Shown: positions 1-58,221, counted from the stretch's first letter. The stretch: DNA of 64,000 bases from a virus (IMGVR_UViG_2645727545_000002:72329-136328); one strand, 5' to 3'. A program made the numbers and translations. The notes: generated by a model not told the origin, from the sequence alone.

Positions 1-195
1 TTTATCTAATAAACTTCCGCCTTTACCTATCATAAATCCAGGTTTATCTGTACAAACTTTAATTGTATCTCTTAATTCTGGGAATACTCCAAGGAGAATC
101 ATTCCTTTTACTCCTGCTTCTTTCTTCCATTCTTTAAAAATGCTTGAAATTTCTTCTCTCATACTATATAAACCTCTTTTCTTGAAATACGAGTT

Positions 196-378
196 TCAAA
201 GAAAACCCATCAACTGATTTTCTAACATTTCTTCCAATTCATCATCTACACTACAATTATGATCACATTCTGGATTGCAGCAAACACACCGTACTTCTGG
301 ATAATGTTTGCATTGTCCTGTTTTATTAATATTCTTTCTATAACTTTTTCCATCTTTTTCGATTATTTGAAAAGCCAT
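196..378 (-). CDS. Small Cys-rich hypothetical protein
   Basis: 60-aa ORF with RBS-like sequence and a C-x-x-C cluster. Confidence 0.6.
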   Translation of the reverse strand: MAFQIIEKDGKSYRKNINKTGQCKHYPEVRCVCCNPECDHNCSVDDELEEMLENQLMGFL

Positions 379-519
379 ATTAAAAGCCCCCTTAGATAAA
401 TTTCCGATTTTATCTTGAGATACTATCCTTTGTAGCCTTCGTATTTACACAATAATCAACTTCAATTTCTGCCACTTCTCCGTCTTGTAAATTACTAAAT
501 ACAGTTCTCTCATAATTAT

Positions 520-903
520 CTAATGTGATAATTTTGTGATTTTAACAATCCCATCTTCGTTATATACTTTTATTTTCATATCAAACCTCCTAATAAAATC
601 CTGATTTCCTATTATTATTTTATTTTTAATTTCTGTTCCGCATATAGGACAGAATTTTACTTTATCCATATCTGTTCCAAAATCATAACCACAACAAGAA
701 GTTACACCGTCTACTAGATATGAAAACTCATTCATTTCATTTGTTTCGAACCATGAATTTGTACAATTATATGGTGCTTGTCTACGTCCTTCAAAAATAT
801 CATTCTCTACAATCTCTTCCGCTTCTTCTTTACTATTTGCTTCTACTTCATATGATTTGCTATATGTTTCATAATAATCTACAATATATTTTGCCATAAT
901 CAT
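520..903 (-). CDS. DpnD/PcfM-like protein with zinc ribbon (3' end probably fused artefactually to the next small gene starting at ~579)
   Basis: YEVEANSKEEAEEIV motif and CPICG; an internal AGGAGG-ATG at ~579 marks a second gene. Confidence 0.5.
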   Translation of the reverse strand: MIMAKYIVDYYETYSKSYEVEANSKEEAEEIVENDIFEGRRQAPYNCTNSWFETNEMNEFSYLVDGVTSCCGYDFGTDMDKVKFCPICGTEIKNKIIIGNQDFIRRFDMKIKVYNEDGIVKITKLSH

Positions 904-909
904 TTCCTC

Positions 910-1720
910 CTATAATCCCATCAAATCTTTTCCGACACTAACACCATAAGTTTCTTCAAACCACTCCCAAATTTCCTCTCGGTGTGTTCCTGCGGCAAAT
1001 CCGTTCCACTCTTCCTCAATACATTCTGTTTCAGGATTCATTGGAACGTCTCCGAATTCTAACCACAAATTCTCGATATATTCTGCACGCCTGTATTCAA
1101 AGCTATCGTTCAGACCACGATTAACGATACATGCTAAATCAGCATCTGTGATTAAGAATTTCCGTTCTGTGCAATAGTCCATTATCGCATTGTATTCCTT
1201 ATCACAAAATTCTGTATCATCTTCAATCTGATCAATTTTCAGTTCTTTTAGATATTCTCTTAATGACATACTATTTTCCCTCTTTCCAATGTTCCATATC
1301 TTCATTTTTCAATGCGATCATTTCCAACATTTGCAGCGTACTGAAACATTCATTTTGTTTTAAAATTTCCAGTTCTTCTGTGATACACTTTACTTCTTCA
1401 TCTTTGTATTCTAAAGAGTCCGCATAATCCATATCTAAAGACAGATTATATAATATTTTCGCAATTTTCTGTGTGTCCATGTTGTTTCCCTCTCTAAAAT
1501 CTGTATTTCAATTAGAATCGCTTATTGCACACGAATCAGCTATGAAAAGTTTTCCATTATATATACTTGCATTTGTATCACTGTCTTGATACATTCTTTC
1601 ATTTTGAAAATCGTAATTACTATATCCCTCACAACAAACAAAAACTTGCGTATCGTCTGACATATCTTTAATAAATTCTCTTAATTCCCCTACTGTCACT
1701 ATTTTCTTATTTTCGTTCAT
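910..1720 (-). CDS. Three small hypothetical phage proteins (910-~1269, 1271-1480, 1508-1720)
   Basis: Tightly packed co-oriented ORFs with RBS-like sequences. Confidence 0.65.
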
Positions 1721-2191
1721 AATCTTTCCATCCTATCATGTAAATTTTATAAAAATTCATTCCCGGTAATCACAAGCAGCACATTATATAACACTCTGAA
1801 GCAATCCTTATTATATTCTTTCTGTGCCATTGCTTGTAAAAGTGTTACAACGCATTTTATTTGATGCTATAATTTGCAGAATTCGGAAAATTAAAAACAT
1901 CCCATTTTTAGCCTTGTTATAACGGTAATAATTTTTTCTATTACTGTTATAACAAGGATTCCGGGGGTTCGGGGGATGGAAGATCCCCGTATTATTTCTG
2001 CACTATTTATTTTTCTGAAAATGGCATATTATAATGTGCTGATCAACATAAAAGATCTAAACCATTTTTCAATTCTTGTTTCAATTCTTCTGATCGTTCC
2101 AGATTAGATAATTCAATCAACTGTTCTACCACATCTTCAATGTCATAATATGAATTTTCTCTGTACTGCTTTAGTTCTTCCATAATCATTT

Positions 2192-2446
2192 TTATACTTT
2201 TTCACCTTTTCTTTCTAATAAGTTAATTCCTTTATCAAGTAGATAAAATGTATCTGCTTGAATTGATTTACATCCTTTATCTACATATCCTAATTCACAT
2301 AGTTTTATTAATTTTCTATATGTAGTTGGTCTTGATGTTTTTGTAATTTTCATAATTTCCTGAATTGTCATACCCTCAATAAAATTAGTACACTCATTCT
2401 TTTTCAGTAACTTCATAATAACAACGTCTAATCTGCTAATTTCCAT
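2192..2446 (-). CDS. Winged-helix (MarR-like) DNA-binding protein
   Basis: MTIQEI...SRPTTYRKLIKLCELGYV pattern. Confidence 0.7.
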   Translation of the reverse strand: MEISRLDVVIMKLLKKNECTNFIEGMTIQEIMKITKTSRPTTYRKLIKLCELGYVDKGCKSIQADTFYLLDKGINLLERKGEKV

Positions 2447-2496
2447 TATTTCTCTACCCTTTTCACTTTATCGTTTGAAAGCGTTCTTTTATTGTG

Positions 2497-2754
2497 TTAC
2501 TGGATATAGGCAATCAGATTATTTTCTGTTTCGTCTGCAATCTGATAATCTAACCACCATTCGTGTATGGTTTCTTCTAACTGTTCTTTAGATATTGTAC
2601 GCTTTAGATCATCCACTTTAGGCTTTAATTTTTCCGTTTCATATTCAACTACGAGACGTTCCTGTTCTAACGTCATGTCATCGTATGTAATAGTTTTTAA
2701 TAACGATTCAATTAGTTTTGTTTTAATTTCTTCCATAGTAATGTCTCCTTTCAA
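2497..2754 (-). CDS. Hypothetical protein
   Basis: ORF in the leftward array. Confidence 0.55.
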   Translation of the reverse strand: MKGDITMEEIKTKLIESLLKTITYDDMTLEQERLVVEYETEKLKPKVDDLKRTISKEQLEETIHEWWLDYQIADETENNLIAYIQ

Positions 2755-2769
2755 AAGATATAGCAGCCG

Positions 2770-3938
2770 TTAAGCTGCTCTATCAAGTTGTGTTTTAAAA
2801 TTTTCAATATAATTTTCTCCAGCAATATTGATCGGAAGAATCAAGAAATTGTACCCGTTTCCATCAATGTACATTGGAGCATTTCCTTGGCTTCCTCTGA
2901 ATACCGGATTCTCTGAATCAATAACTGATAATGCATCCATAAGATAATGTGAATTGAATCCAATAAATAAGTCCTCGTCCATTACAAGATTTTTCGTTTC
3001 AATCTCGTCAAAAGTTTGATATCTGGAAGTCTGCAAATATGTGTAAAGTTTTCCGTTCTCACTATGAAAGATAGTAGGTTTCTTTTCTTCTTTTACCATA
3101 TCTGCGTTATACTTCATAATTTTTAACATTTCTTCCCTATCAGCATTGAATACAAAATCTCTGCTATCGCACAACATCTGTTCAATATTGAAATATTGTC
3201 CATCAATTCTTCTGATAACGTATGTAAAATCTTTTCCGGAAATTCTGATATATTTCTGATCCTGATATACTTTGACTCCCGCATCTGATTTTTTATCCAT
3301 GATTTTCTTGAATACTGGCAAGCATTTCACATGGAGTTTTACAGTGTCAAATGGATTTTCCGTCACTGTTATAATCTCCTGGCTATCAAGTGATCTCATC
3401 CCAATTCTGCGATTGTCCATAGCCTCTACACGCTTCCGCTTTGTGTTGAAGTTGAATACATTCAGCATTTTATTAACGTCATCTCCTGTAACAAATAAAG
3501 AAAGATTGGCGATTGTTTCCAATAACCAACTCTCCGTTGTTGTAATAATGTGCGCTTCTGTATCATCCATTGCTGGAAGAAAAATATCTGTATTCGCATA
3601 CCGTGGAATAGTAACAATCTTTTTTCCGCACTTTATGTTTATTCTCTGCTGCATTTCCGCGCTAACATCTTCCAGCGTAACATCTCCGCTCATTTTGGAA
3701 ATGATCTTGATATCGTCAATGTCAATCCCCAAACGCCTGGACTTGTGTTCCATGTGTTGTCTGTCTTGACTTCTGCAAAATGTTCCATATCAGTTCCCCA
3801 CATTTTCACCGTTCCATCTTCTTCGACCTGAATATATAACTTTTTCAAGCTGTCAAGTGTTGCTTTCTTGTTAATAGCTGCCATTCCTTTTCTCATAATT
3901 TCTTTTAAATCTTTTGCATTCATTGTAAATTTTAACAT
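2770..3938 (-). CDS. dnaN: DNA polymerase III beta-clamp-like protein (split near 3755, likely read error)
   Basis: N-terminal MLKFTMNAKDL...GTDME and C-terminal IGFNSHYLMDAL...LILPI typical of sliding clamps. Confidence 0.75.
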
Positions 3939-3977
3939 TATTACCTCTCCTGCTCCTTATATAAAACATCACTTTCC

Positions 3978-5172
3978 TTATTGCACGAATTCGATTTCCC
4001 ACACATTAGATTGTTTGCAAACACCATCTTCAAATTTCCAATCAGAGGACTTTCCGTATTCTATCCAACTTCCTTTTCCATTGTTAGCTAATGTAATTTT
4101 GCTACCTGGTTTTCCATCTTCAATACTGTAAAATCCGTTTGTCTGTACTACATTCGGCTTTCTAATCTGCCCCTCACATTCTGATCTGATATAGTGTTTT
4201 CTAATAATAAATTTACGTCCCTCTTTGATTACTCTTTTTAACTGTGCTAAATTTTTAATTTCCATGTTTATTTCCTCCCAATAACTAATCCCTGTTACAA
4301 TAATCTAAAAAAGCGCCTATTGTTTCTTCTGCTTCGCACCTAGTCAAATATCTTCGCTTTTTACTTTTCTTTCTATGTAATGGTAATCCACACATCTTGC
4401 GTTCATTATTTCTTAATAACATTTTGTCCGTTTTTTGTTTCTTCCTGGTATTTATGTTCATACTCATTTCACCTCTTAAAATCGTGCTTTCATCTTATTT
4501 ACATTTTCATACACTCAATACAATTTTCAGCAATGTTACTCTCTGTTTTCCACTCGTCAATTCCAATACAACGATTTTCACATGTTTCTTTCTCGTTACA
4601 ACAAATACAACATTTTTTACATTTATCATTTTCTGGAACTGATATATCAATTAAGCATCTAAGCATTTTTACTACCTCTCTATTTAAAATTATCTTTTCA
4701 TAGGTATCAATTCATCTTTATCAGCCACAAATTGATTAGCATTTTTTCTGTCGTTACAGTTTGGAAAATCATCAACAGACACTTTTACTCTATCCATTGT
4801 TTCTAGCCCAATAACAGTAACAATTTTCCCGCAATGAGGATGTTCTACTTCAACCTGCTTCGTTGCTCTATTCATAGGATGCCATATAAATTTCATTCCT
4901 TCTTTGTATTCCAAACCATCTTTCATGTACTCTTTGCCTTGCCACTTATCAAAAGGAGTCCAATCATTTACTACAAAACCACATCCATAAAAAGAACCTT
5001 CTGATACAAGATAATAATTTCCAGCTTTGCATACTCCAAAATCTTTCTTACAATAAATAACTTCACTTCCATCAATGAAAAAATATTTTTTTAAATCCTG
5101 ATATCCATAATCTTTTCTTTTATTACTAAATCTATAGGAATTACATTTCCAATTTTTAAATCTTTCCATCAT
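3978..5172 (-). CDS. Four small hypothetical proteins (3978-4265, 4285-4467, ~4495-4665, 4690-5172)
   Basis: Co-oriented ORFs, most bounded by the junction repeat. Confidence 0.6.
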
Positions 5173-5256
5173 TATTTCCTCCTAATAAAATCATTATTTG
5201 TTTCCATAACATACGGAACAGCAAAAAGCTGTTCCTGACTGTTCCAAAGTTCTACG

Positions 5257-5898
5257 TTATTCAACAGATACACAGATTGAAGAATCTAAAGAACAAAACG
5301 GACGAACCCCACAAACGTTCCAATCGCAACCGTAGTAGCGCACGAAACCATCACAGTAAACAACCTGAACATAGGAAGATGAACACCCGTCTGGTGTATC
5401 TAACCAAAACGGTTTTTCATTTTCTGTCCTAAACATACCATTCTTTCTGGCTTTTCTGTAATCATCAAAAGTTCCTAAATGTACTTTACAATTACATGTT
5501 CCGTAAGTGTCCAACCCATCCATAGAAAGTAAATCAACTGTATCTAATAATACATTTTCTTTTCCAAATCCTTTGTAGATATCAGACAGAATTTTCCCAT
5601 TTTCATCATTCAGTACATTCTTGATTTCAGAAGTTCTAAAGTCATTTGACCCATTGTCAAATTTATAAGTTCCGTCAATAAGCTCTTTTTTCCAAACTTT
5701 GGTTCTATTGTTCTCAATATCCTGTTCCACCACATACCATTCATTTCCAATGTCGTCTACAATCACGTTTCCAACCTTGCATTCATAAAGTGGTTTGCTC
5801 TGTCTTATTCCTAAAGATTTCCTTAATTCTTCCGTTAATTCGATCACCAGGTTATTTCCTTCTACTTTTACATTTGTCTTATTTACTTCGATATTCAT
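5257..5898 (-). CDS. DUF6273-like / C-type-lectin-fold protein
   Basis: FWLDTP...GVRP C-terminus and SEIKNVLN motif. Confidence 0.6.
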   Translation of the reverse strand: MNIEVNKTNVKVEGNNLVIELTEELRKSLGIRQSKPLYECKVGNVIVDDIGNEWYVVEQDIENNRTKVWKKELIDGTYKFDNGSNDFRTSEIKNVLNDENGKILSDIYKGFGKENVLLDTVDLLSMDGLDTYGTCNCKVHLGTFDDYRKARKNGMFRTENEKPFWLDTPDGCSSSYVQVVYCDGFVRYYGCDWNVCGVRPFCSLDSSICVSVE

Positions 5899-7434: not shown

Positions 7435-10400
7435 CTATACGTATACATCTATGTTGCATTGTCGTTCTTCATTTTCGATATGAACATCTATCCATGTTCT
7501 ACCGCGTCTGTATGAACTGCTTCCCAAAATATCCAGTGTTACGAGAGGATTCTCCCGAATCTGCTCACACTCTTCATTCGTTAGTATATTCTTATCCAAG
7601 GCTTCCAATTCATCAAACGTATAATCTGCTAAAGATTTTCCTACTGTTATCATAATCATGGCTCCTTTCCTTCTGCTTCGTTTCGCTTCTTTCAACCGAG
7701 ATCAGCTCAATCTTGTGTTTCCTCTGTGTAATATTGATCAACTGTATCTGATGCTTGTTATAAAAATTTTCCATCATGTCTCTTCCTATTCCATTCTTTC
7801 CGCTTTCGTATTTGTTGTATATGGCTCTTTGCTGATTATCCAATCACCTACAGATAGATATACTTTTTCATCATCGTTCCAGGTTTCCCAACCTTTTATA
7901 TCATTTACATTGATATATCCGCTATCCGGTGTAACGTCTGTTTCGATATAATAGCCAGTTCCGTCCGTAAAATTTAACTCCAATCCCTCTGTTCCTATAG
8001 TAACGCTTTCGATTTCTTCTGTATCGATATATGTCTCCGGCATTTCTGTGACTGTTTCTTGAGCTTGTTCCGATGTGTTTTCAATCGAGTTTCTTCCTAT
8101 TATAAATGTGGTAAAAGAAATAATTGCAACAGCACCGATATATAATATTTTCCGCTTCATCATTCAAACCTCTTTCTATAAATCCTTTACGTTTCCGACT
8201 ACTTCCCAATCTGTTATTGAGTCCGTTGTATTTAGCTTTTCCAGTGGTAGACGCTCAATATTTCCATTTCCGGCATTATATGTATATCTGTATTTCCGTG
8301 TATCAATGATTGATTCACTGACAACACGTCTTAAAAATCTATTTGTCATAGTTTATTTCTCCTTACTATGCGTAAATTTTCCCATTTGTGCCTGTTTTAT
8401 AATTCTTAAAGATAACAACTGGATTTTTAAAACAGTTCTCTAAATCATCAATATACCTACTGTCAAAGCAGCCATATTTTGATTTTTGTAATTTTTACAT
8501 TTTTTATTATCTTCAAGAGTTTCTTTTATTTCCTCTTCTTTTAAATCCTGCCAACCTTCAAAAATCATCATAGAACAGTTATAGAAGAGTTTTCTATATT
8601 GTGTTCTTTTTCGGTATGGTGTAAAAATCATTTCCATAACATCACTATACTGTGCATATGTTTTTGCTTTCATGGAATGGAAAGTAATTTTTTGAGCTAC
8701 TGGGAAGCCGAATTCGTTCAGATATACAAGTGTATATCTTTTTCCTTCCTGTAATTTGTTATAAAGTGCTTTCTGTAATGGTTCCGCGTATTTCATAAAC
8801 AGATCATCAAATACTTTGATAGCTTCGATTTCCGTTGATACTGTTTTACTTTCTAATTCTTCGTCATCTTCATACATTGCCATGATTTCAAATTCTCCGA
8901 AAATCTCACAGGCATCAATGATTGTTTTCTTTCCCATTGTATACCCTCCTTTTAACTCTTCGTGTTTGATTGTTCTTTTTAACATTCTATTTTCCTCCTA
9001 TTTTACTTGTGTATGCTTTTCCGCTTATAAAAAAGACAAATGTTCAAATTAGAATTAAAACTATCTTCTAAATGATCCATATTGCCCACTTTTATAAGCG
9101 GAAAATTTCCGCCTATATTCTATATTAGGTCTATTAATCTTACTCCATGATATTCTGATAATTTTATGATTTTTTTAAATCCATTTTCAATCATCCAATT
9201 TTTCAAAAACTTTTTTCGTTGTTTTAAATTTTGTAGATCCGAAAAATGGAAACGGATTATAACCGCTTATCTCTATCCATTCCTCTGTATTTGTGCTTTT
9301 TATCCACACATTAGTTATTTTACCGTCCTTAATCCATTTTGTCTGTTTGATTGTCATTATCTTTTCCTCCTAATATGTAATAATTCTATTTAAAAGTAGA
9401 AAAACTTATACTTCTACTGTAAAAATCCTTCCTTTATCCCAATTTGCTTTTTGTAAAGCCTGATCAGATACAGATATTCTTACTTCTAATTCGCCATTAT
9501 TATTGATATAATAGCTAGTATTATCATATTTTTGATTGAACAATTTTGAAAAATATTTCTTCATGTCCTCTACTTTTTCAATTCTTTTTTCCGTCAATTC
9601 CTTGTTATAGTTAAATTCATCACCGTAATTATATCCTGCAAATGTATCTCGTTTCCCATCTGAAAAAACTCTGAACCCTGCCAAATCATCAAGTATAACT
9701 ATTTCATCGAAATCAGCGTTGCAATATTTATTAACAAAATTTAAAATATTTTCTTTAGTGTATTTAACTTTTTCGATGTTGGAATTTCTTTCGCATTCTA
9801 ATCTTGATTTATTGCAATCATCAATTTTCGGATCATCTGTAATATAATGACAATAATCGCAAGTCAAGTAACCTTTTTCCGAAATTGTTTTCGGTTGTTT
9901 TAATTTCCTTCCGTTCTTACCATATTCAACAACTGTATGTTTGTAACCGCTTATAAATTCAATATAAATCTTTTTTCCTTCTTTATTAGTAAATGCTGTT
10001 CTGATTCTACAATTTTCCACGTCATTACATGGTACCCAACCTGCACCTTCAAAATACAATACTTTCTTGCTCATAATTTCCACCTTTTTAACCTTTCTTT
10101 TATATATCTGCTTTGTTATTCTCTGTACATCGCTGAATTATCTCAAATTTTTTATATTTCCAAATCATCCATTGACTCACTATAAAGCGATTTGTATTTT
10201 ACCTGCATGTTTCCGTATTCATCATATATGCTGTTACGCTCTGAATGAGTGTGTATAATGCTTGTAAACTGCATAATGTTGTATAAATGTTTTCCCTCCT
10301 TTGAAAATACTTTATGAGGAATATATAAGGCTCTTCCAATACAATTTTTAAATAAATCATATTCAGCGCCGTAGAATGATTCTTTACTAAAAGAACATAC

Positions 10401-15959: not shown

Positions 15960-17490
15960 CTATGCTTTATGCCCACCAATTTGATTATTCCTATCTATTG
16001 CAGTAGCTCCTTCCTGTAAGCTCATACCTTTTAAAATTGCATTCTTCCCAAATTTTTTTCTTTATGTCTAAAACAGCTTTTTGTATATCTTTTTCTTTCT
16101 GAAGTTTCTCCTGGTCAACTTTCTTTTCATCAGATTCAATCATATCAAACAAATTGATCTGTTCATATCTATCTTGCTTTGCCTCCTTTTCATTGATCAC
16201 ATGATTTGCTGACATATTAATTCTTCTAACAAGTAAATCTTCATCCACAATTCTATTAAATAAATCAAGCACTGCTCTTACAATCACATTAGTAGACGAT
16301 GTATAGCTGTCTAAGTTTATTGTACCATGTGCATGTTTTGGAATTTTTCTTCCGTATTGATCAATAGAATACTCCCCTTTATAATTTCTCATCCTCACAG
16401 GATCCATTAAATTTTCTCTATCATACCCTACTGTCAATACAATCTGATCTGTTACAAGATTTTTGCTCACCAAATCTAAAACCAACATTTCCGTCATTTC
16501 ACGCACAATAATTTTCGTTTTATCAAAATCGGTTCCACAGTGTAGAATTTGTCCACTTCCTATGCTATTATTGTCTGGTTTATAGTTCTTAATATCTGTA
16601 ATTGTAACAGGCTCCCATCCCCAAGCATGATCAATCAAAAGTTCTGTATTCTTGCCAAACATTCTACGCAGCAAACCTTCATTATAATAATCCTCCTCTT
16701 TTCCAAGAGAACATCTTGCAATATCTCCCATTGTATATAACCCAACAGATTCCAACTTTTTTGTATATCCTCTTCCAATACGCCAAAAATCTGTCAATGG
16801 TTTGTGCTCCCACAATTGTTTTCTGTAAGATATTTCGTCCAGTTCTGCAATTCTTACACCGTGTTCATCAGCAGGAATATGCTTTGCTACAACATCCATT
16901 GCAATCTTAGCCAAATACAAATTCGTTCCAATACCTGCGGTCGCTGTAATTCCTGTTTCATGCAGCACATCCAGTATAATTTTCTGTACCAATTCTTTTG
17001 CAGATAACCCATACGTATTTAAATAAGAAGTTGCATCTATAAACACTTCATCAATAGAATATACATGGATATCTTCTGGAGCAATATATTTTAAATAAAC
17101 ATTATAGATTCTGGTACTGTATTCCATGTAAAACGACATTCTAGGAGGAGCTACAATATAATCAAGTTTTAGATTTAAATCATCATCCAATTCTTTCTTA
17201 TTATAGGAGAAATCAGAGAATTCACGCTTTCTTAAGTTATACAATCTTGTAGCATTGATTTCTCTTACACGTTGCACAACTTCAAATAGTCTTGGTCTTC
17301 CGGATACACCATATGATTTTAAAGACGGAGTTACTGCAAGACAAATTGTTTTCTCTGTTCTGCTATTATCAGCAACAACTAGATTTGTTGTCAATGGATC
17401 AAGTCCACGTTCTATACACTCTACTGATGCATAAAAGCTTTTCAAATCAATTGCAATATATGTCCTATTCACGACAATAACTCCTTCCAT
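15960..17490 (-). CDS. umuC: Y-family (UmuC/UvrX-like) DNA polymerase (frameshift near 16055, likely read error)
   Basis: IDLKSFYASVE, YSIDEVFID and a C-terminal QIGGH in the shifted frame. Confidence 0.9.
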
Positions 17491-20977: not shown

Positions 20978-22823
20978 ATGAATTTTAATAAACAACAAGA
21001 AGAAACTATTAACACAATAGAAGGAAACGTGGCAGTTATTGCATCTGCCGGTTCCGGGAAAACAACTGTTCTTACGAATAGAATCAAAAAAATGGTTGAA
21101 GAACATAATATATTACCATCTTCTATCCTGGCAATTACCTTTAGTAAAAAAGCAAAAGAGAATATAATCGAAAAACTAATGGGACTTAATATATCGAATG
21201 TATCTGTAGAAACTTTTCATTCATTTGCATTGAAGATCATCTCCTCTGTGTATGGAATCAAAAAATTTAAAATATGGACAGCTTCATGGGAAAAAGAGAA
21301 AACAATAAAATGGATTTGTAGCGACTCTTTGTTACTTTGTGATTCTGATAATGTTCCATACAACGAAATTACATCGTTTATTGCATTGCAGAAAAATAAC
21401 ATGAAAACGCCAAATGATGATTTAATTTACACTCCTGATATCCCATTTAAAGAAGAGGATATGAGACAAATATACAAAACTTATGAAGAGTATAAAGAAA
21501 TCAATTCACTTATTGAGTTTGATGATTTTTTGAACATGGCAAATAAAATTTTTGATACTGATTATTATACTTTAGAAAAGTATCGAAATATTTTTCAGTA
21601 TATATTAGTTGATGAATTTCAGGATATTTCAATTTCTCAAGCATTACTTTTAAGAAAATTAAACACAAAAAACACAATGATCGTCGGAGATCCTCTTCAG
21701 GCTATTTATTCATTTAGAGGTGGTGATAGCAGATTTATTCTAAATTTTGATACTGATTATAAAGATGTAAAAGTTATTAATCTAAATACAAATTATAGAT
21801 GTAGCAAAGATATTGTATTTACAGCAAATAAACTTGCGTTAAGTATTCCTGATTCTCAACACAAAAATTATGTAGAGAGTATTTCAAATAAAGAAAATTT
21901 TCAAATTCCTGAGTTAAGACATTTCCCTGATGATTATGAAGAATGTTTATGGGTTGCATCAAAAATAGGAGAATTAAAATTTAAAGGATACGATTACAAC
22001 GACATTGCCATCCTCGCCAGAACAAATGCTCAATTACAAAAACTAGAGTCAACGCTGCATGATGAAGATATAGCATTTGAAATTGTTGATGGTAAAACTT
22101 TTACAGAATTACCAGAGATCAAATTGATAATTTCTTACTTTAAACTTGCGTTAAACACAAATGATAATGAATCGTTTTCTTATCTATACAATAAACCAAA
22201 TCGATGGTTAGATAAAAAATTTTTAAAAAGAAGTAACAGATAACAGTTTTAAAAGAAATATATCATTATACAATTCAATGTTCACGATTGATAGGAGAAA
22301 TTGGAGATTCAAAAAAGGTATCGATGAAATCATTGAAGTAATAAATTATTTACAAAACAATCAGAATTCCAACATTTCAGATTTGGTAAGATTTTTGAGA
22401 AACAGATTAGACATTGATAAATTTGTTACAAAAGGAAAGCAATCAGATGATGGAAGTTATATTGAACAAATCGACAACCTTAACAGTTTTGAAAATATTT
22501 GTTCCAAATACTCTTCCATTAAAGAATTTGTTTCATACATAGATGAGTTAAATACAGAAATGGAGAATAAAGATAATGATAAAGTCAAATTACTTACAAT
22601 TCATAAGTCAAAAGGTATGGAATATCCTGTCGTGTTTATCATTGGATGCAATGAAGAAATCCTGCCACACTATAAGAATGAAAATGTTGATGATGAACGT
22701 AGGTTATTCTATGTCGCAATTACAAGAGCCGAAAAAGAATTATATCTATCATATGTTGATTTATATAATGGTCAAACAAAATTGATAAGCTCTTTTATTA
22801 AAGATGTTGAAAATACAAATTAA
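20978..22823 (+). CDS. UvrD/PcrA superfamily I helicase (frameshift near 22225)
   Basis: ASAGSGKT, VDEFQD, GDPLQAIYSFRG, TIHKSKGMEY, ERRLFYVAITRA. Confidence 0.95.
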
Positions 22824-23285
22824 AAATTATAAAAAACGAAAAAATAAGTGGTGAATAATAAGTAATCCTACTTTATGTATTTTGTTTCTAAATGGTGAAT
22901 TAAAATATGTCCCACATTCAATAAACATCATTTAGGAATTTGTAACTTGAAAATCAAATTTCATTTCATTTAAAGAAAGGAGTTATGTGAATGAAAACAT
23001 AATTATATTTTCTATCACATTAGAATTGCAGCGAAGATATCCCTAGAAAATATCTTCCATCGCACAAGTTTTTGTGGATGTTTCATCCACGGTTGGTTTG
23101 GATTATTGCGGTAAGTCAGAATCTAACGTTCCAGACTGCTGCTCTGATCCAAAAGAAATGATGCAATTAGTTAATAGTCAAATTTAAATAAAGAGAATAA
23201 ATATATGAAACTTATAGTCATCACTCAATTAAAGGAGCGAGTCCAATGACAAACAAAAATTATGAAAACAGAGGAGATTTAATTT

Positions 23286-23513
23286 ATGAAAACAAGTACA
23301 TATGTAACACCAGGAAGCCATAATCTTCAGATTCCAAATCGGAGCGAATTACACAAGTATCTAATTGAAAACATTACAGTTGGTGATTTTAGTACAGGTG
23401 GTTGTGCAGATGGTGGAACAAAAATTAAGAAAATTGCACACGCAATCAATTGGTCAAAGGCTATGCATAATAAATACTATATTAAGAAATTTTCAGAAGA
23501 AAATAGAAAATAA
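23286..23513 (+). CDS. Hypothetical protein
   Basis: AGGAG RBS and 75-aa ORF. Confidence 0.55.
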   Translation: MKTSTYVTPGSHNLQIPNRSELHKYLIENITVGDFSTGGCADGGTKIKKIAHAINWSKAMHNKYYIKKFSEENRK

Positions 23514-23529
23514 GTTTGAAAGTGAGGTC

Positions 23530-24652
23530 ATTACTATTTTAACTTGTAAATTAGGAAACGAAATCATCAATTGTTATGATGGAACACATGATAAGGAGCA
23601 GCTAAAAAAGTGGGCAGAAAAGAAAATTCTACTTTGTACTGTTTGCAATAAACCATACGAATACTGTCATGGTAAAATCAAAACACCATATTTTAGACAT
23701 ATGGAAAAGATGTCGTGTGATTATCAATATAATGAACCTGAAACCGAAGAGCATTTAAAAGGAAAACGAGATCTATTTGAATGGATTAAAAAACAGCCAA
23801 AACGTTAAAAATGCAGTTTTGGAAGGTTGGATACCAGAAACAAAACAACGACCAGACATTATGTTTGAATATAAAAATAAGCAATATGTAATTGAATATC
23901 AATGTTCTCCTATTGCAACAGAATATACAGAAAGACACGAATTATATAAAGCTGTAGGTATACATGACATATGGATTTGTGGAACACAGAAATATCTACA
24001 ACAAAATATGAGAAAGAAATTTTTAGAAAATGTAGCATATGCTTTTTATTCATCTGAAAATCAGATTGTTTTCCCAATAGAACATAATCATTTATTTGGG
24101 AGAACTTGTTTGATAAAAAATGAATTGAGAGTAAATCATAATTATTTTTATGGTCTTTCGCTGGGCGAATTTTCATTTGATTATGAAATATTTAATAAAA
24201 AGTTTGGAAAACCTAATGAAGTTATTAAAAAAATGGAATATAGAAAAAATATAAGAAAAAATGCTTCATTTAAAAAAGAACAAGATTATTATTTATTTTT
24301 ACAAAACAAAAAACTAAACCGGGATTTAGATACTAAGTTATATCAATTATCTAATAACAACTGGAAGTTCTATATAATGACAAATTATAGTAAGTATAAA
24401 TCTTTTGAATATATACTTGCAGAACCAGTGGTGTCGTATAACATACATAAATATGATTTCCATACAAAATTCAGAAATAAGAAATACAAGAAAATTATGA
24501 TTAGTAAAATGGATTATAGTGAATACAAAAGATGTTGTCGTGATATTGAATATTTGAAGCGAATATTATATGAAATGATGATAGAAAACAAAAGACAGTT
24601 AATGAAATATACAAGTGAAAATATTAGATTTTTGGAGGTATTGGATAATTGA
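23530..24652 (+). CDS. CoiA-like nuclease (frameshift near 23795)
   Basis: CTVC...PYFRH, ETEEHLKGK, RPDI...IEYQCS. Confidence 0.8.
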
Positions 24653-27600
24653 GTAAACATTTAACATCACAAAGATACGTTTTTAAAATACATTCTTCTC
24701 GTCTTAGAAGAGCAAAATGGGATTTGCAGCTATCAATAAAACAAGCACGAGAAAACAAGGAATTAATCGCATTAAGCGAAAGTCAAATGATGAGATTTAT
24801 AGATGAATTGAATGGAATAACAAATCCTGAATTACATATTTCAGATATAAAATCTAAAATTAAAAATTTGAAATATGAAAAGAATTTATCTGTATCAAGA
24901 CCAAAAATTAAAAAACTGTATGAAGAATTAGATACTTATCAATTTAAAAAAGATTATGTATGTGTTGTTATAGATAATAATAAAGACTATTACAAAATGT
25001 ACAAACACGGTTTTAAAAATAAATAAAATTACATACAGACGATTACTTGGAACTACTGGTGGAGTTAAAAATAATACAATTGTTTTTGTAAACGAAAAAT
25101 TATTACCAGAATTAAAAAGAAGAATTGACAATGGAAGAGATAAAACTAAAGAGTTTCTCCGGCAAAATTAGAAGCATATAACGCATTAGTCTGCAGTTCT
25201 TCTACTCCTGTTTCATATCCAAATGGTGTTGTTGTTGTACATGACTGCATTACACACTTCAAATCTGACATTATCGAGTTAGACGATACAAATCTTGAAG
25301 AACCAAGCATGAAATATATTAAAAATAAAGAAATGGAATTAAATGACAGTGATGGGTATGGATTAGCAATGCCGCAGCTCATGAAAAGATGGGGAGAAGA
25401 AATTGGAGAAGATTTTTTGTTGCCTGGATGCGTGATAAGAAATTCATTTTGTAAAGGGGCAGTTTTTCCTATCGATTTTCAAAAATTCGCCAGTGATAAT
25501 AATATAGATTCGATAACTGATGTTTGGGGGGATACTCATAATATAAATGATATAGAGCTAATACTGACAGAATCAATGTTAAAATTGTGGGACTCGTATT
25601 CATCCATTGAAGATTATTTAGAAAACTGCGAAAAAAATCATTATAGCTTTTCTATTACAAAGAATTCCGAAAAAGAATTAGAAAATATTAGAACAATGAA
25701 CTATCAGTTTCTCCAAAGTTATGATTTTAATGAGGAAGAAATCGATGAGCTTATTGAACCCACTGTTTCAGAAATATGTGATATTTTGTCAGATGATTAT
25801 AGGAAAACTATTTTATATACAAAAGGTATTGGATTAAATAGTGATACCGTTCAGAATTTAGACAATTCGTTTTCAACAGCATTGATGATTGAGCCGGAAA
25901 TGAAAAATGATCCATTTATCAAATCACAAATTTATTCTATGATTAGAAAACGAATTGATGATGCAAAAGTTGGCGTTTTAAATGTCCCGGCTAATTACTC
26001 TTTGGTTTCCGGAGACCCTTACTCATTATGTCAATCTATGTTTGGATTGAAGGTCACAGGATTGTTAAAGTCCGGAGAAATTTATTCGAAATACTGGATT
26101 GATAAAGGGGTAGACCAGATTGTAAGTTTTAGAGCGCCAATGACCTCTCATAATAATATTAGAAAACTAAATGTGGTTCATAACGAAAAGATGGACGAGT
26201 TCTATAAATATATGACAACGCCAACAATATTCAATAGTTGGGATACATGTGCAGATGCTATGAACGGCTTCGATAAGGATGGCGACTGTGTAATCAATAC
26301 TTCTCTCCCGCTGCTTGTTAAAAAAACACAAGAATTACCAGCGGTGGTATGTGTGCAGCGGAAAGCACCAAAATGTATTCCCACAGAAGACGATATCATG
26401 AAGTCTAACATCAATAGTTTTGGAAATGCAGTTGGTGCCGTTACAAATAAAATTACATCCATGTTTGAAGTTCAAGCAAATTTCCCAAAAGATAGTCGTG
26501 AATATAGAATTCTAGATTATCGTATTAAATGTGGACAATTATACCAGCAGAACTCGATCGATTAACTTTAGTCGCTTTACACAGCGATGTGTATCGAATA
26601 ACAAGGTGAACTTATAAATATAAGGTGTACATTACACGTATAGGAATTACAGGAAATGGTAATTAGGTAATGTGCTAACTGGAGAAGTCTAAGTATATAA
26701 CAATAAAATATGCGTAAAAAATTTAAAAGAAAGAATGTGATTATATAAGTTTATATAACAATTATGGAATTTATGGAATAAGAAATAAAATCAATAACAA
26801 GATTTATGTTGGAAAAACAGAAATGAATTTTGGCGACAGAAAAGATTGTCATTTTGCAAGTCTTCGTGGTGGATATCATATAAATCCGCATTTGCAAAAA
26901 TCATTCAATAAATACGGAGAAGATAATTTTGAATTTATTGTATTGTATCAATGTAATAACAATGAAGATAGTAATATGGTCAATGAATTAGAGAAAAAAT
27001 ATATCAAGTTATATAAGGACAAAGAACTTGCTTATAATATTGGAGATGGTGGTGACGGTGGACATAATTTAGGAAAGCATTTGTCAGAAGAAACCAAAAG
27101 AAAAATTGGAGACAAAAATAGAATCAACATGACTGGTCGTAAAGCCACTATTGAAACTAAGAAAAAAATGTCAGAAGCTCAAAAAAACGTTTTGATAGAA
27201 TGTCTGATGAAGAACTCAAGGAATATGGGAAACGAATTTCTCAATATGCTTCAGGATATAAATGGTCAGAAGAGTCAAAAGAAAAATTTTCAAAAATTCA
27301 GCAATCTAAACCTAACGGCGCAAAATATGATGTGGAAACAGTAAAAAAGATAAGACATTTGCACGAAGACAAGAATTTGACTTATACAGAAATCGCAAAA
27401 TTATTAAATATGCACAGACATACTGTGTATTTAATCGCTACATATAGAAGATGGAAATACGCATAACCCATCACACTGTTATATATATGATGATCCAGTG
27501 CCAAGCTAAAGCAGCAATGCTTTAGAAGGTCAAACGAGCAAGACATACAATCTCTACGAGATTATGAAGTCTGTATGATTAAGGTGGAACTCCTTGATCA

Positions 27601-29369: not shown

Positions 29370-29976
29370 ATAAGCACTTGCTTATAAATACAAATAACTC
29401 AGTGCAGATTGGCTTGTCACCATGCTGAGAATATATGAATAGTGAGTTACGGTATAATGCGATAGTTTTATACTGCAGCTTCTGGAATGATGTGAATCAT
29501 AAACAGAAAGACGGAAACTGTCAAAACTAAATATATGTACAATAATATATTGCCGTAAAACGCAATTGCCAGATCGCTGACATAATAGACGACTCCAGTG
29601 GAGTAATAATCGTGATGCCTGTATCGGTGGAATGTTACAGAGAGATAAGTAGCGAAAATCCAAATAAGTCAGTTGCGTCGTTGATCGGAAGAAATTCCAG
29701 TATAAGATCTGTCGAATGTACGAGTAGCCCAAAGTGACGTGAGATTAATACATAAAGAACAAAAAAATTAAATCTTATTATGAATTTTCTTAATACGCTG
29801 AATGACATGGGTGAAAGTTTCTCGTAATCAGTCGAGGCTACAATTGCTGTTTATCAGATGTAAAGGAAGTCTAAGGGTAGCTCCTTATTCTCAGCCTTTA
29901 CAAGTAGTGGCGGAATATTATGACGATATATTTGAGTAGGAAGAAGTTCCATTTGTATTTATAATCAAGTGCTTAT
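29370..29976 (+). ncRNA. ROOL-like large non-coding RNA (~607 nt)
   Basis: 25/26-bp closing helix 29370-29395 with 29951-29976; internal hairpins; adjacent to tRNAs; size and context match ROOL. Confidence 0.7.
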
Positions 29977-30065: not shown

Positions 30066-30139
30066 TAGCCCCATCGCCAAGCGGTAAGGCACAGGACTTT
30101 GACTCCTGCATTCAGTAGTTCGAATCTACTTGGGGCTGC
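30066..30139 (+). tRNA. tRNA-Gln(TTG)
   Basis: Cloverleaf, CAGGA-CTTTGAC-TCCTG anticodon arm, GTTCGAAT. Confidence 0.9.
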
Positions 30140-30418: not shown

Positions 30419-30493
30419 TGCAGGCGAGTGGAACGGATTACTACGTCAGACCCATAATCTGAAAATACTGGGTTCGACTCCCAGGCTCTGCAA
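30419..30493 (+). tRNA. tRNA-Met/Ile2(CAT), atypical
   Basis: TCAGA-CCCATAA-TCTGA arm, GGTTCGACTCC; bulged acceptor stem. Confidence 0.7.
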
Positions 30494-34259: not shown

Positions 34260-35493
34260 CTGTATAATTTTGAAAAAGAATTAGAAAAATACGGATTAAC
34301 AACTGAATCTTATGAAGCTGCATGTAGAGATATTGAAAATAAAATTGAACAGCACAAATGATATGGACTGGGGTGAAATCAAAGATAAATATAATATTCA
34401 ATGTGCGGTTGATACAATCAGAAAGTCATCTTCTACTATTTTCGGTGGACAATTCAGAGAAGAATATTTAAAGAGTAAAATCTATACTGATGTAGATGAA
34501 TTTTCTAAATTAAGAGAATTAGATAAGAAATTAGAAGAATTACGCAAAGAGCGGATAAAAATTCAAACAGCTAATATTGAAAGAAATAGACTTGACAGAA
34601 GTGAGTCGCGTCAGGAATTGTATTACGAATATATTGGAAGTGTTATTGATACTCTTCCATTACCGGAATTTAGACCGATTTTATACGATGAAATACATAC
34701 TATAAATTATTTGGTCGGGATTGCAGATGTGCATTATGGAGCTTGTTTTAAAAGTGTAAATAATGAATATTCTCCGGCAATCGCTAAGAAAAGATTTGAA
34801 TATTTGACTCATAGATTGATTGATTTTATTCAAGATAAAAAGATTGGAAAGCTAACAATTGTATCGCTGGGAGATCTTTTACAAGGCGTTTTACGTTTGA
34901 GTGATTTAAAAATTAATGATACGTCTATCATGAAAGCAACGGTTGAAGTGTGTAGATTAATTGCAATTATGTTGAATGAACTTTCGGCATATGTGGAAAT
35001 CACTTACTACCACACACCATCGGCAAATCATACTCAAATTAGAGTTCTTAACGCTAAACCAAGTGAATTAGCAGATGAAGATTTAGAATATTTGATGGGT
35101 AATTATATTCATGATTTATGTGCAAACAATAAAAGAATTCATGTACATCTTGCGAAAAATGGCGAAGATTTTGTTGATATATATATGCCAGGAAATGACA
35201 TTCTTGCAATGCATGGTCATCAAATTAAGAATGTGGAAACCGCCATTAAAGACAAAAGTGTTCTACACCAAAAATTTTATGACACACTCATTGTTGGACA
35301 TTTACATAATGGAAAAGTAATCCCATCACATGAGGGAATCTTTGGAGATGCAGAAATATTAATTAGTCCTTCATTTGTTGGAAGTGACCCGTACAGTGAT
35401 TCTTTAAACAAAGGGAGCAAAGCTAGTGTGCAGATATGGGGATTTGATAAAGTATATGGTCATACTGAGACATATAAGATTATTTTGAATTAG
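34260..35493 (+). CDS. Calcineurin-like metallophosphoesterase (YonJ-like; start approximate)
   Basis: ADVHYG, LGD, ANH, HGH and GHLH motifs. Confidence 0.85.
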
Positions 35494-35504
35494 AGGTTAA
35501 ATAC

Positions 35505-35677
35505 ATGAAAGTTGAATTATATTGTTGCTACTCTCTTCCACTTAGAGATTATCTATATAAAATGGGATGAGATATAAATTAGCGGCATTAAATCCAAATA
35601 GCAAAAAATTATTTTGGGTTTATATAAAAAATAAAAAATTAAATGAGTTATTGGATAAGTGGTCTGCGAATAAGTAG
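35505..35677 (+). CDS. Small DUF5659-like protein (one frameshift)
   Basis: CYSLPLRDYL...LNPNSKKLFWVY. Confidence 0.55.
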
Positions 35678-35726
35678 ACCACTTTTTAAATGGAGAATAA
35701 TTTATGTAGAAATATTGGAGGTGCTT

Positions 35727-36674: not shown

Positions 36675-37016
36675 GTTTAAAAGTTAAATATCTATATCAA
36701 ACATTGTAGTTACTCAGAATTGAAAAACTAACGAGAGAGTTCAATCCGCGGCTCAGGATAAGCAGATTTACAGATTACCTATGTGGCAATCTACGCCAGT
36801 GCTCACGTACATGTTCCCACTTATTAAAGCGGAATCTGTCGTATGCACTAACATGTACAGGAGTTTCTATAGAATAAAAACTTGCCATACGTATCACCTG
36901 CCTTCCAAAATAAACTGCATCATCTTGGAGAACCGATATCCTAGAATGTGGAGAAATCCACGAAATAAATTATAAAAATTTACAAATTAGTTGATAGAAA
37001 AGGAGACATTTTAAAA

Positions 37017-37295: not shown

Positions 37296-37313
37296 GATTG
37301 GCGGTGTATCTAT

Positions 37314-39063: not shown

Positions 39064-40109
39064 GTGATTAAAATAGCACGAAGTACAGTTTATAATCAGA
39101 TTACTTCTTCTGAAAAATTAGAACAAGTAAACCCTGAAAATAAAGAATTAGGAGAAGATTGGTTAGAGTATTTGGAATCTATTGATCGCTCTCCTCAAAG
39201 CATTGTTGCGTATAGAAGTGACCTAAATATATTTTGGGTATGGAATTTACAATACAATAAAAATAAATTCTTTGCTGATTTAACAAAACGTGAAGTTGCA
39301 AAATTCCAGAATCATGCATTAAATACATGGGGCTGGAGTCCAAACAGAATCCGTAGAGTTAAATCATGTCTGTCATCTTTGTCAAATTACATTGAAAATG
39401 TTTTAGATGATGAAGAAGAATTTGAAAATTATAGAGGGATTATAAGAAAAATTGAAAACCCAGCTAAAGAAGTTGTTAGAGAAAAAACTATTTTATCTGA
39501 TGAACAAGTGGATTTCTTGTTGCAGGAATTAGTGAACAGAAAAGAATTCGAAAAAGCTTGCGCCGTTGCAATAGCAGCTTACTCTGGAATGCGAAAAGGT
39601 GAGTTGTTACAGATGAAAGTAGAATTCTTTAATGATGACCATTTTGTATATGATTCCATGTGGAAAACTGATAAAGTCAGGGCAAAAGGGTTCGGGAAAT
39701 TAGGACATCAATTAAATAAATTTGTATTATATGGAGCAAAACCTTATATAGATTCATGGTTAGAGTATAGAAAAGAAAATGGAATTGAATCTGAATGGAT
39801 GTTTGTATCATCTTATAGAGACGAAAACAATAATAAATGTTATAGGAAAAGAAAAAACTTGAGTGAATGGACATATGAATTTAGCGAAATTTTAAACGAA
39901 GATTTCTATTTTCATAGCCTGAGACATTTCACATGCACCAAACTACATCGCTTAAACTTGCCCTCACACGTTATTCAAGAATTTTTTGGTTGGCAAAGCG
40001 CAGAGATGTTAAAATCTACAATGATCTTACTGCTGAAGACGAATTTAGCAAATATTTTGATAAAGATGGAATTAAAGAGGTGACACAGGGTTATTTGTCT
40101 GATGTTTAA
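39064..40109 (+). CDS. Tyrosine recombinase (frameshift ~40010)
   Basis: YSGMRKGE, HSLRH, FFGW; catalytic Tyr in the shifted frame (IYNDL). Confidence 0.9.
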
Positions 40110-40548: not shown

Positions 40549-40582
40549 TGGAGAGCTGTGCTGCTCTCCTATTTTTGTATTT

Positions 40583-40654
40583 GGCTCCATGGTCAAGAGG
40601 CTAAGACATCGCCCCTTCACGGAGGTAACACTGGTTCAATTCCAGTTGGAGTCA
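40583..40654 (+). tRNA. tRNA-Glu(TTC)
   Basis: GGCTCCA/TGGAGTC acceptor, CC-TTC-AC loop, GGTTCAATTCC. Confidence 0.8.
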
Positions 40655-41649: not shown

Positions 41650-41692
41650 ATATGTATAAAACAGGACGGCGCTACTGCCGTCCTATTATTAT

Positions 41693-58091: not shown

Positions 58092-58221
58092 TATATAAAA
58101 TTTCGCTTTCATTTAGAAATGAGAAGAGAATAAGAGATATGGTGCTACTAAAATAGTAACACCATAATGGAAGTGAGTTGATGATGTGATAAGCATCGCC
58201 AACATTATTGTACCAATCTTA

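Follow-up and report, generated by a model that had tools for sequence, protein, structure and literature searches.

A 16-base palindrome at the borders of exchangeable early-gene cassettes in a large gut phage

The attC sites of integrons are 57-141 bp long, carry paired R''-L''/L'-R' boxes, act as folded single strands and travel with their cassettes. In recombinase-mediated cassette exchange, an engineered use of Cre and Flp, heterospecific lox or FRT sites have 13-bp arms in common and differ in their 6-8 bp spacers; only like sites recombine, and order is kept. The stoperators of cluster A mycobacteriophages, sites of a known repressor (gp71 in L5), are 13 bp long, asymmetric and orientation-dependent. 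T4-type phages carry PeSLs (promoter-early stem-loops), repeated intergenic elements of about 100 bp that combine a strong sigma-70 promoter with a stable G+C-rich stem-loop terminator, and these have been proposed to drive modular shuffling via recombination between copies (Arbiol et al. 2010, PMC2839356; Comeau et al. 2014, PMC4122927). Single-recombinase Xer systems include XerH-difH and XerS-difSL (PMC5357621, PMC5241119), and the pdif 'dif modules' of Acinetobacter plasmids, which alternate in orientation, depend on host XerC/XerD (PMC6449649).

Here, we analysed a 64,000-nucleotide stretch (the window; positions 72329-136328 of IMGVR_UViG_2645727545_000002) of the 136-kb genome of a large gut phage with 31.7% GC. 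Between window positions 183 and 5201, a 16-bp palindrome, T[GA]AAA-N6-TTT[CT]A, lies between a stop codon and a ribosome-binding site at nine junctions of an array of small early genes. The sites, given in the sense of the array genes, and the array are as follows:

183..198, minus strand: junction site TGAAA-CTCGTA-TTTCA, between gene 196-378 and the gene reaching to 162; arm positions 1-3 are the TGA stop of gene 196-378
397..412, minus strand: junction site with centre TCGGAA and right-arm variant AATTTA, before gene 196-378
594..609, minus strand: junction site GGAAA-TCAGGA-TTTTA, before a small gene starting at 579
1495..1510, minus strand: junction site TGAAA-TACAGA-TTTTA, before gene 1271-1480
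2476..2491, minus strand: junction site TAAAA-GAACGC-TTTCA, separating gene 2497-2736 from the wHTH gene that follows it
3962..3977, minus strand: junction site GGAAA-GTGATG-TTTTA, before the sliding-clamp gene
4477..4492, minus strand: junction site TGAAA-GCACGA-TTTTA, before gene 4285-4467
4685..4700, minus strand: junction site TGAAA-AGATAA-TTTTA; the centre contains the stop of gene 4690-5172
5186..5201, minus strand: junction site ACAAA-TAATGA-TTTTA, with a degenerate left arm, before gene 4690-5172
196..5172, minus strand: small early-gene (cassette) array, the genes between the sites
520-903, minus strand: DpnD/PcfM-like gene in the array
2192-2446, minus strand: wHTH gene in the array
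2770-3938, minus strand: DNA polymerase III beta clamp gene in the array, conserved, split in this assembly

The nine 16-mers listed in an earlier note on this DNA were each found at their coordinates. Its observation that the site overlaps or follows a stop codon and precedes the next ribosome-binding site is true of all nine on the minus strand, which encodes the array genes, with 1-17 nt separating a site from the next gene's Shine-Dalgarno sequence. The note had also described conserved arms around centres that differ each time; the 6-bp centres do differ among copies, and one arm is degenerate in four of the nine sites (397, 594, 3962 and 5186). ORF 520-903 runs through site 594..609 in this assembly, probably because of an indel error, since relatives have TAA TAA TAG immediately before the site. 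The cluster extends upstream of the window, with more copies at genome positions 72228, 71953 and 67709.

The strict pattern TRAAA-N6-TTTYA has 10 matches in the window against 4.8 +/- 2.4 in shuffles, five of them within the first 5 kb. Across the whole genome, 130 early-gene junctions contain 13 copies of RAAA-N6-TTTY, where shuffles give 1.6 +/- 1.5 and none of 2000 reaches 13. The excess is restricted to a spacing of six, as other arm spacings occur 0-5 times at the same junctions, and coding DNA shows neither enrichment for the motif nor a preference for this spacing. Four relatives repeat the spacing-specific excess, one of them with a clamp protein only 54% identical. The sequence logo reads TGAAAt-N4-aTTTCA, with little information outside positions 1-16 save for the Shine-Dalgarno sequence, and the conserved unit is 12-16 nt, with a 12-nt core of AAA-N6-TTT.

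In a genome this rich in A+T, a stop codon with an A-run, followed by a U-run before the Shine-Dalgarno sequence, might produce such a pattern by chance, and the five matches outside the array equal the number expected by chance. Two of these had been put forward as further copies:

22948..22963, no strand assigned: isolated match in a 420-nt non-coding stretch, at no gene junction
58096..58111, no strand assigned: isolated match, 5 nt past the stop of gene 57741-58091

Both exist, but neither has a gene after it (at 58096, none follows on the same strand), and for these two chance is the best reading. For the array it is refuted by the spacing- and junction-specific excess and by its recurrence in relatives and in SPbeta, and as a general explanation we regard it as extremely improbable.

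SPbeta, a phage of Bacillus subtilis, carries the palindrome TAAAA-N6-TTTTA in 22 copies against 2.2 expected in 49 kb and in 7 against 1.2 in 19 kb. It has the same arms, spacing and place at gene ends, its TAA is often the stop codon, and its centres differ from copy to copy. Unlike the mixed arms of our phage, those of SPbeta are almost only TAAAA/TTTTA. This element differs from the SPBRE palindrome, the binding site of the MrpR repressor, and we found no published description of it in the literature searched. The kinship of the two phages is remote, their DNA polymerases being 23% identical, and our phage shares with SPbeta the full pattern of TRAAA-N6-TTTYA at gene ends, far above chance and with differing centres. 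The junction palindrome is confirmed as a real element, and both this phage group and SPbeta have it after a stop codon and ahead of the following gene's ribosome-binding site.

Across 20 related IMG/VR phages, the 12-nt cores retain their individual centres and their slots in a fixed order, and the flanking genes are replaced by unrelated cassettes of one to four genes. The earlier suggestion that the sites delimit exchangeable units, each with one or a few unrelated genes, within the array is borne out by these alignments, in which gene gain, loss, replacement and some reordering break exactly at the sites. Homology between relatives stops at motif positions 2/3 and 14/15, in the two arms, with first mismatches concentrated at position 2 for the left flank and position 15 for the right. 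The ends of HSPs are most frequent at positions -6..4 and 12-17, and a second group, about 30% of the breakpoints at motif junctions, falls instead in the Shine-Dalgarno/start region. Blocks of 99.9% identity terminate exactly at sites, and high-identity blocks stay clean right up to them (46 clean versus 3 diverged). Homology ends at motif junctions are 2.5 times those at other junctions; many junctions lacking the motif are also breakpoints, and genome-wide these account for most junction breakpoints.

Individual sites illustrate this behaviour. At 183..198, whose centre occurs with several different flanks, homology ends in four relatives, and in four more it ends at the next start codon. 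The TCGGAA centre joins six left-flank to five right-flank gene families, with 12 combinations present and one 2 x 3 set (F050/F044 by F039/F060/F070) fully represented. Twelve homology ends fall at 594..609 and 11 at 2476..2491, where relatives have five different downstream genes. Site 4477..4492 has at least seven different upstream genes and three downstream contexts, and the AGATAA centre (4685..4700) has eight left and about nine right flanks. At the TAATGA site (5186..5201), exchange occurs mostly in the spacer between Shine-Dalgarno sequence and start codon, with nine ends at reference positions 8558-8579, and the spacer there is a crossover zone in its own right. Where copies with different centres have been joined, the junctions are in register, and the crossover lies at the right arm in 25 pairwise observations versus 4, probably about three events versus one. 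Where both flanks are homologous, the sites are no hotter than random positions (12.9% versus 14.0%). In addition, 314 divergence change-points fall within genes, and the centre evolves like linked flanking DNA, with no extra constraint of its own.

The comparison with integrons proposed in the earlier note holds in part. As in integrons, the cassettes are promoterless, share one orientation and have inverted-repeat sites as their boundaries, often with the stop codon inside the site, and some hybrid sites have their crossover at the right-hand repeat; the units are exchangeable and the breaks fall at the sites. Membership of the integron class fails on length, folding, covariation and the occurrence of the same site after many genes. 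Unlike attC, the phage sites are 16 bp long, unstructured and fixed in place while genes change, so that one and the same centre is found after 7-8 unrelated genes, in an unchanged array slot. No IntI-type integrase, attI or Pc promoter was found, and the recombinases give only weak matches to Xer models, far below cut-off. The likeness to PeSLs is one of position and of proposed function. The sites span the interval from upstream stop codon to downstream Shine-Dalgarno sequence, are concentrated in the hypervariable early-gene region and lie where insertions, deletions and replacements that distinguish close relatives begin or end. However, at 12-16 nt they are about six times shorter than PeSLs, show neither a promoter excess nor a stable stem-loop, and each copy has a private, position-specific centre.

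It is the sequence of the arms that is read, and not a structure. A search for a stable hairpin gave folding energies of 0 to -3.8 kcal/mol, the same as shuffles, in line with the earlier judgement that the arms are too weak for terminators, and that role was rejected. No covariation was found between the arms, whose variants are uncompensated; positions 2 and 15 assort independently (59/60/31/34, p = 0.88), and the left arm tolerates TAG, TAA and TGA, the TAG variants being found in practice. A role as promoters was also rejected, as a search returned 27 promoter-like sites against 30 +/- 5 in shuffles, with none tied to the sites.

Such sequence-read arms could point to a purely regulatory element, either an operator that a dimeric DNA-binding protein occupies as a roadblock, like a stoperator or a cre site, or a standard translational junction, with no role in recombination; it would then mark mosaic borders merely through its position at gene ends, where selection permits borders. 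The 5-N6-5 arrangement puts the centres of the half-sites about 11 bp apart, a geometry that is classic for helix-turn-helix dimers, as in 434 and CRP-type operators, and small HTH proteins are encoded within and beside the array. The tie to stop codons in both this phage and SPbeta, and the frequency of mosaic borders at motif-free junctions, fit as well. The likeness to stoperators, which also lie at gene ends within transcription units (dozens in one phage), is one of location only, the phage site being palindromic. Against this reading, illegitimate joining followed by selection would keep neither an identical 12-nt core between unrelated flanks nor yield in-register hybrids, and motif junctions are borders 2.5 times as often as others. 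Moreover, there are no copies at the early promoter or switch region, and the distance to the Shine-Dalgarno sequence varies (2 to 17 nt). We therefore consider a purely regulatory role quite improbable.

The main rival explanation is that the sites are minimal core sites of the Xer/dif type, used by a phage tyrosine recombinase for dedicated cassette exchange. The earlier note had named one candidate enzyme:

39064..40083, plus strand: Xer-like tyrosine recombinase with Pfam Phage_integrase and SAM_4 domains

This is a genuine Xer-like tyrosine recombinase, although its matches to Xer NCBIfam models are weak and below cut-off, and it has homologues in 171 phage records of Firmicutes. A XerH-like gene near the array is the better placed candidate. 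It lies beyond the array's 3' end, in the same orientation; in relatives it is intact, encodes 331 aa and lies 2-3 kb from the array, and in this assembly it is broken by homopolymer indels. The product carries the residues R, HxxR, H and Y, has XerH as its closest solved relative (E = 4.6e-11) and is found in 33 related contigs. All relatives checked encode one or more tyrosine recombinases, and no prophage form was found among 185,579 species genomes. The sites have 5-6 bp inverted arms around a 6-bp centre, and GAAA-N6-TTTC resembles the inner arms of difH (...ATGAAAA) and difSL (TTTCCGAAAA / TTTTCTTGAAA) (PMC5357621). As in pdif, many copies flank accessory modules. The breaks at arm/centre borders are compatible with such an enzyme but not diagnostic, and the in-register junctions of different centres, mostly at the right arm, also agree with it.

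Several observations weigh against a dedicated recombinase. The conserved arm is just 5-6 bp, in contrast to 10-11 bp in dif and 10-13 bp in known Xer, Cre and Flp sites, and no extended dif-like palindrome occurs in three genomes. The left arm accepts any stop codon, as if it were simply one, and the sites lack hotspot behaviour and constraint on the centre. The crossovers at Shine-Dalgarno sequences and the many motif-free breakpoints also fit poorly. One 123-kb relative has the sites and two other tyrosine recombinases but lacks the array-adjacent homologue, and neither recombinase of our phage is detectably similar to YopP or YopR of SPbeta, which has the palindrome. Site-specific recombination at these sites is a tentative and rather unlikely explanation. 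Since strand exchange needs an identical overlap, the only partner for a site would then be the corresponding site of a co-infecting relative. It is tempting to speculate on a natural 'barcoded' cassette exchange, with private 6-bp centres and a Xer/XerH-like enzyme, shared by SPbeta-like phages of Firmicutes, though we hold this to be doubtful. If true, single genes or small sets would be swapped without scrambling the array, which would not delete itself. The arrangement would resemble heterospecific lox/FRT, except that a natural enzyme acting in this way on the phage sites is hypothetical.

The explanation we favour, at about an even chance, is that the sites are conserved junction 'linkers', short homology patches for the phage's own recombination. 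Copies and the adjacent Shine-Dalgarno sequence would serve as the patches, at which co-infecting relatives may cross over through the phage's relaxed homologous recombination or that of the host; the genome encodes a Sak4-like (AAA_24) annealing protein, a candidate phage factor. We propose that the private centre holds exchange in register, and therefore gene order is kept, while rare crossovers between different copies would use the arms only and lead to cassette loss, gain or slot change. The arms probably have a further sequence-specific role in double-stranded DNA, for example as a protein docking site. From the in-gene change-points, the non-motif breakpoints, the Shine-Dalgarno crossovers, the lack of a hotspot, the flank-like evolution of the centre and the Sak4-like gene, we infer that general homologous recombination is active and sufficient.

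Some observations sit uneasily with the linker explanation. Known homologous recombination works inefficiently on an identity of just 12-16 nt between non-homologous flanks, whereas events of this kind appear to be about as numerous as ordinary change-points in some 15 kb of homologous DNA, and selection for new cassettes must therefore be invoked. Linkers also leave unexplained the conservation of the 5-N6-5 arms in distant relatives and in SPbeta. The right-arm crossover bias is easier to reconcile with a defined strand-exchange point than with symmetric microhomology, and two Xer-like recombinases are encoded with no prophage form that would give them an integration role.

It has long been asked how phages can swap unrelated genes with such precision at the borders between genes. 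In this large gut phage, a discrete 16-base element, whose arms are conserved and whose centre is specific to each copy, marks such borders, and in about 20 natural relatives the cassettes to its left and right have recombined in many combinations. Because the motif is real and unrelated genes are swapped exactly there, it provides a concrete, testable joint for phage gene shuffling; a dedicated integron-like enzyme acting on it is a candidate only. Moreover, since the same element is present in the tractable phage SPbeta, short homology and a dedicated recombinase can be separated by crosses and deletions. The cassettes are small early genes with no assigned function, a class that often holds anti-defence genes, and how fast genes of this kind spread may depend on these joints.

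The contig is a single viral sequence of 136,328 bp with 31.7% GC, and the window is its final 64 kb. Genes in the window run on the minus strand to about 12,300 and on the plus strand beyond, so that the sites belong to an array of small early genes on the minus strand and must be read on that strand. All nine of the 16-mers reported in the earlier note are present at their positions, and the order on the sense strand is a stop codon, T[GA]AAA-N6-TTT[CT]A, 1-17 nt, a Shine-Dalgarno sequence and a start codon. The window contains 10 matches to the strict pattern (4.8 +/- 2.4 in shuffles), five of them within the first 5 kb. The enrichment at junctions that had been proposed as a check is clear: across all 130 early-gene junctions of the genome, 5.7 kb in total, RAAA-N6-TTTY occurs 13 times versus 1.6 +/- 1.5 after shuffling, a count reached by 0 of 2000 shuffles, while other spacings give 0-5. 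No preference for a spacing of 6 was seen across 74 kb of coding DNA. The spacing-specific excess recurs in four relatives, one of which has a sliding clamp only 54% identical and entirely different centres (the middle 6 nt of the site). Moreover, a logo of 28 distinct cores extends the arms, the conserved inverted halves, to TGAAAt-N4-aTTTCA. The cluster extends past the start of the window, with copies at genome 72228, 71953 and 67709; the further copies suggested at 22948 and 58096 are not at gene junctions, and their number is what chance predicts.

The motif is thus real, and it marks the places where unrelated early-gene cassettes are exchanged. We compared 20 loci of 21 kb, recovered from IMG/VR through a clamp-protein scan, and 33 more from a recombinase scan. 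Homology with each relative is a patchwork whose ends cluster at the sites, for example 11 within window 2472-2478 and 12 within 586-608. At the nucleotide level, an identical TAAAAGAACGCTTT precedes different genes, and one relative carries a hybrid site, made of the 2476 centre followed by the right arm and flank of site 1495, with the intervening genes deleted. Each site has a private centre and keeps a constant position among relatives, in the fixed order (TAATGA)-AGATAA-GCACGA-(GTGATG)-clamp-GAACGC...TACAGA...TCAGGA-TCGGAA-CTCGTA-(GTTATA)-GTCGCA-TTCACA. Unrelated cassettes, each of one to four genes, alternate in the slots between sites. AGATAA has 8 different left flanks and about 9 right ones; TCGGAA joins 6 left to 5 right gene families in 12 combinations, the set F050/F044 x F039/F060/F070 being complete. 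A few families (F030, F042, F005) change slots, and F026 and F029 occur in either order.

The breaks are also precise. When two sites share a centre but have unrelated flanks, they first differ at motif position 2 on the left in 112 of 258 pairs and at position 15 on the right in 79 of 237. HSP ends are most frequent at positions -6..4 and 12-17; another group lies some 20-25 nt beyond, at the Shine-Dalgarno and start region, and the ratio between the two is roughly 70:30. Relatives that have otherwise diverged share blocks of 99.9% identity that start and stop precisely at sites, where block margins are clean in 46 cases versus 3 diverged (16 versus 15 at non-motif junctions), and motif junctions collect 2.5 times as many homology ends per junction as other junctions. 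These breaks and combinations uphold the idea that the sites are cassette boundaries. Adjacency-level tests are weak (p between 0.035 and 0.2), chance AT-rich words dominated an unbiased 11-mer screen for two-sided islands, and a fixed-register scan for different-centre junctions was disturbed by 1-nt register shifts. Genome-wide, with two relatives only, 5 of 12 motif junctions versus 39 of 118 others are broken, which is not significant, and 39 of the 44 broken junctions lack the motif. Mosaicism is extreme across the genome and falls mostly at junctions without the palindrome. The part of the 136 kb alignable by blastn comes to 71 kb with relative G005 and 27 kb with G001, whose clamps are 93% and 90% identical.

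What the arms are constrained for was sought in several ways. Folding energies of the sites as RNA (0 to -3.8 kcal/mol) equal those of shuffles, positions 2 and 15 combine at random with each other (G-C 59, G-T 60, A-C 31, A-T 34; p = 0.88), and compensated arm variants are almost absent; a hairpin of RNA or single-stranded DNA, or a terminator, is thereby ruled out. So is a sigma-70 promoter, since such sequences are not enriched (27 vs 30 +/- 5). The left arm is also found as TAGAA, so positions 1-3 act as any stop codon; in 18 of about 69 distinct junctions they serve as the upstream gene's in-frame stop, roughly the one in three expected from frame alone. With no signal of folding, covariation or promoter, the sequences point to arms constrained as double-stranded DNA, not as a hairpin, promoter or terminator. 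The integron-like part of the earlier proposal fails on the features that define attC: the site is 16 bp, has no structure and stays while the genes change. The defining features of the PeSLs of T4-type phages are likewise absent from these small sites, which have neither promoter nor hairpin.

The reading we favour, at about even confidence, is a conserved junction linker that, with the adjacent Shine-Dalgarno sequence, offers recombination a brief stretch of identical DNA. Each site's private centre would then keep cassette exchange in register. Such a linker would work like PeSL shuffling, although the site is much smaller and without a promoter. It leaves the conserved arms unaccounted for. 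A purely regulatory site with no part in recombination is a less likely reading, and in our judgement quite improbable.

The same palindrome occurs in SPbeta DNA (Bacillus phage SPBc2, NC_001884, 66000-134416; our loci L078 and L079). The pattern count is 22 in 49 kb versus 2.2 +/- 1.4 expected (a level reached by 0 of 100 shuffles), and another 19 kb holds 7 copies versus 1.2 expected, making 29 palindromes of the TAAAA-N6-TTTTA type in 68 kb, about ten-fold above chance and mostly at gene ends; 9 of the 22 supply their own TAA as the annotated stop codon. SPBRE is a palindrome bound by the recombinase-fold repressor MrpR (PMC10516654). The junction motif is not this operator: the annotated SPbeta palindrome is TTGTAATGCATTACAA, and the SPbeta junction palindromes differ from the SPBRE-like palindrome annotated upstream of yopM. 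Orthology of either recombinase of our phage with SPbeta YopP or YopR/MrpR was ruled out, with no detectable similarity. The phage polymerase is remotely similar to SPbeta YorL (23% identity, E = 2e-16). We found no published description of the junction palindrome in a search that lay outside subscription journals, which is weak evidence of novelty.

No DNA-level relative among deposited phages was found when the array was compared with INPHARED by blastn, and searching 185,579 species genomes for the array-adjacent recombinase yielded no prophage form. The genome encodes a DNA polymerase III alpha-type polymerase, an NAD-dependent ligase, RecD2- and DnaB-like helicases and NrdD, along with the following features.

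Features of the contig (window coordinates unless genome is stated; strand where assigned)
2770-3938: sliding clamp; the genome also has a Sak4-like annealing protein and two tyrosine recombinases
Genome 35173-37773, 49247-50638 and 23230-24147 (outside the window) and window 15991-17472: unusual phage cargo, namely an 866-aa P-type cation ATPase, a NAMPT-like phosphoribosyltransferase and a Y-family (ImpB/UmuC) polymerase; in addition, the Sak4-like (AAA_24) annealing protein
29374-29969, plus: full-length ROOL RNA (Rfam RF03087, 321.5 bits, model positions 1-574 of 574)
30067-30139: tRNA-Gln, adjoining the ROOL RNA; further tRNA match at 30420-30492
40582-40655: tRNA-Glu
41691-41764: tRNA-Thr
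1720-2040: gene-free 320-nt stretch within the array, differing among relatives, with a long hairpin; candidate antisense small RNA
1844-1873, plus: promoter-like site with TG-extended TATAAT, in this stretch
1970-1989: terminator-like hairpin, in this stretch
5215-5235 and 2762-2779, minus: two G+C-rich hairpins, terminator-like with poor T-tails, after gene 5257-5898 and the clamp gene, kept in relatives, just upstream of junction sites
L005:16216-17211 (relatives): 331-aa tyrosine recombinase, with small HTH proteins on its flanks; its broken counterpart in this genome is at 69187-70039 (genome)
Genome 69187-70039 (immediately before the window); window 520-903, 2770-3938, 20978-22243 and 25309-26565: genes split or truncated relative to relatives or profiles (tyrosine recombinase, clamp, helicase, others)

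In the alignment, the recombinase gene at genome 69187-70039 is interrupted by single-base insertions within A-runs, which look like assembly errors. Many of the split genes, and the sparse ORFs of the late region, are therefore probably homopolymer errors of the assembly and not recoding or introns; stop-codon recoding was rejected as their source, as recoding TAG or TGA brings little gain in ORFs.

A serious rival reading, less likely than the linker, is that a dedicated Xer-like system with heterospecific centres acts on the sites. In geometry the sites match a tyrosine-recombinase core site. Their inner arms, GAAA|N6|TTTC, are similar to those of the sites used by two single recombinases: difH (left arm AGTTATGAAAA) for XerH and difSL (TTTCCGAAAA / TTTTCTTGAAA) for XerS (PMC5357621). 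Relatives carry an intact tyrosine recombinase of 331 aa, 2-3 kb past the last site and in the same orientation; its closest solved relative is XerH (E = 4.6e-11), and it is kept in 33 related contigs with catalytic residues apparently intact. A second Xer-like gene, the enzyme suggested earlier, lies at 39064-40083. However, the conserved part of each arm is only 5-6 bp, and a search near the recombinase and across three genomes found no extended dif-like site or palindrome. The centre diverges like a control 6-mer of the linked flank (99 vs 92 identical pairs of 178), and divergence changes abruptly at 12.9% of sites with homologous flanks, versus 14.0% of random positions and 20.3% of other junctions. 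Divergence changes at 314 points within genes, a sign of very active general homologous recombination, and the Sak4-like protein belongs to a kind of annealing enzyme tolerant of short or diverged homology. Five unrelated genes have a common leader at the TAATGA site, up to and including GGAGGAAA, which makes the Shine-Dalgarno spacer a crossover zone in its own right, and the many broken junctions without the motif (39 of 44) also count against a dedicated enzyme. If true, a dedicated Xer-like exchange with heterospecific centres would be a new kind of natural system.
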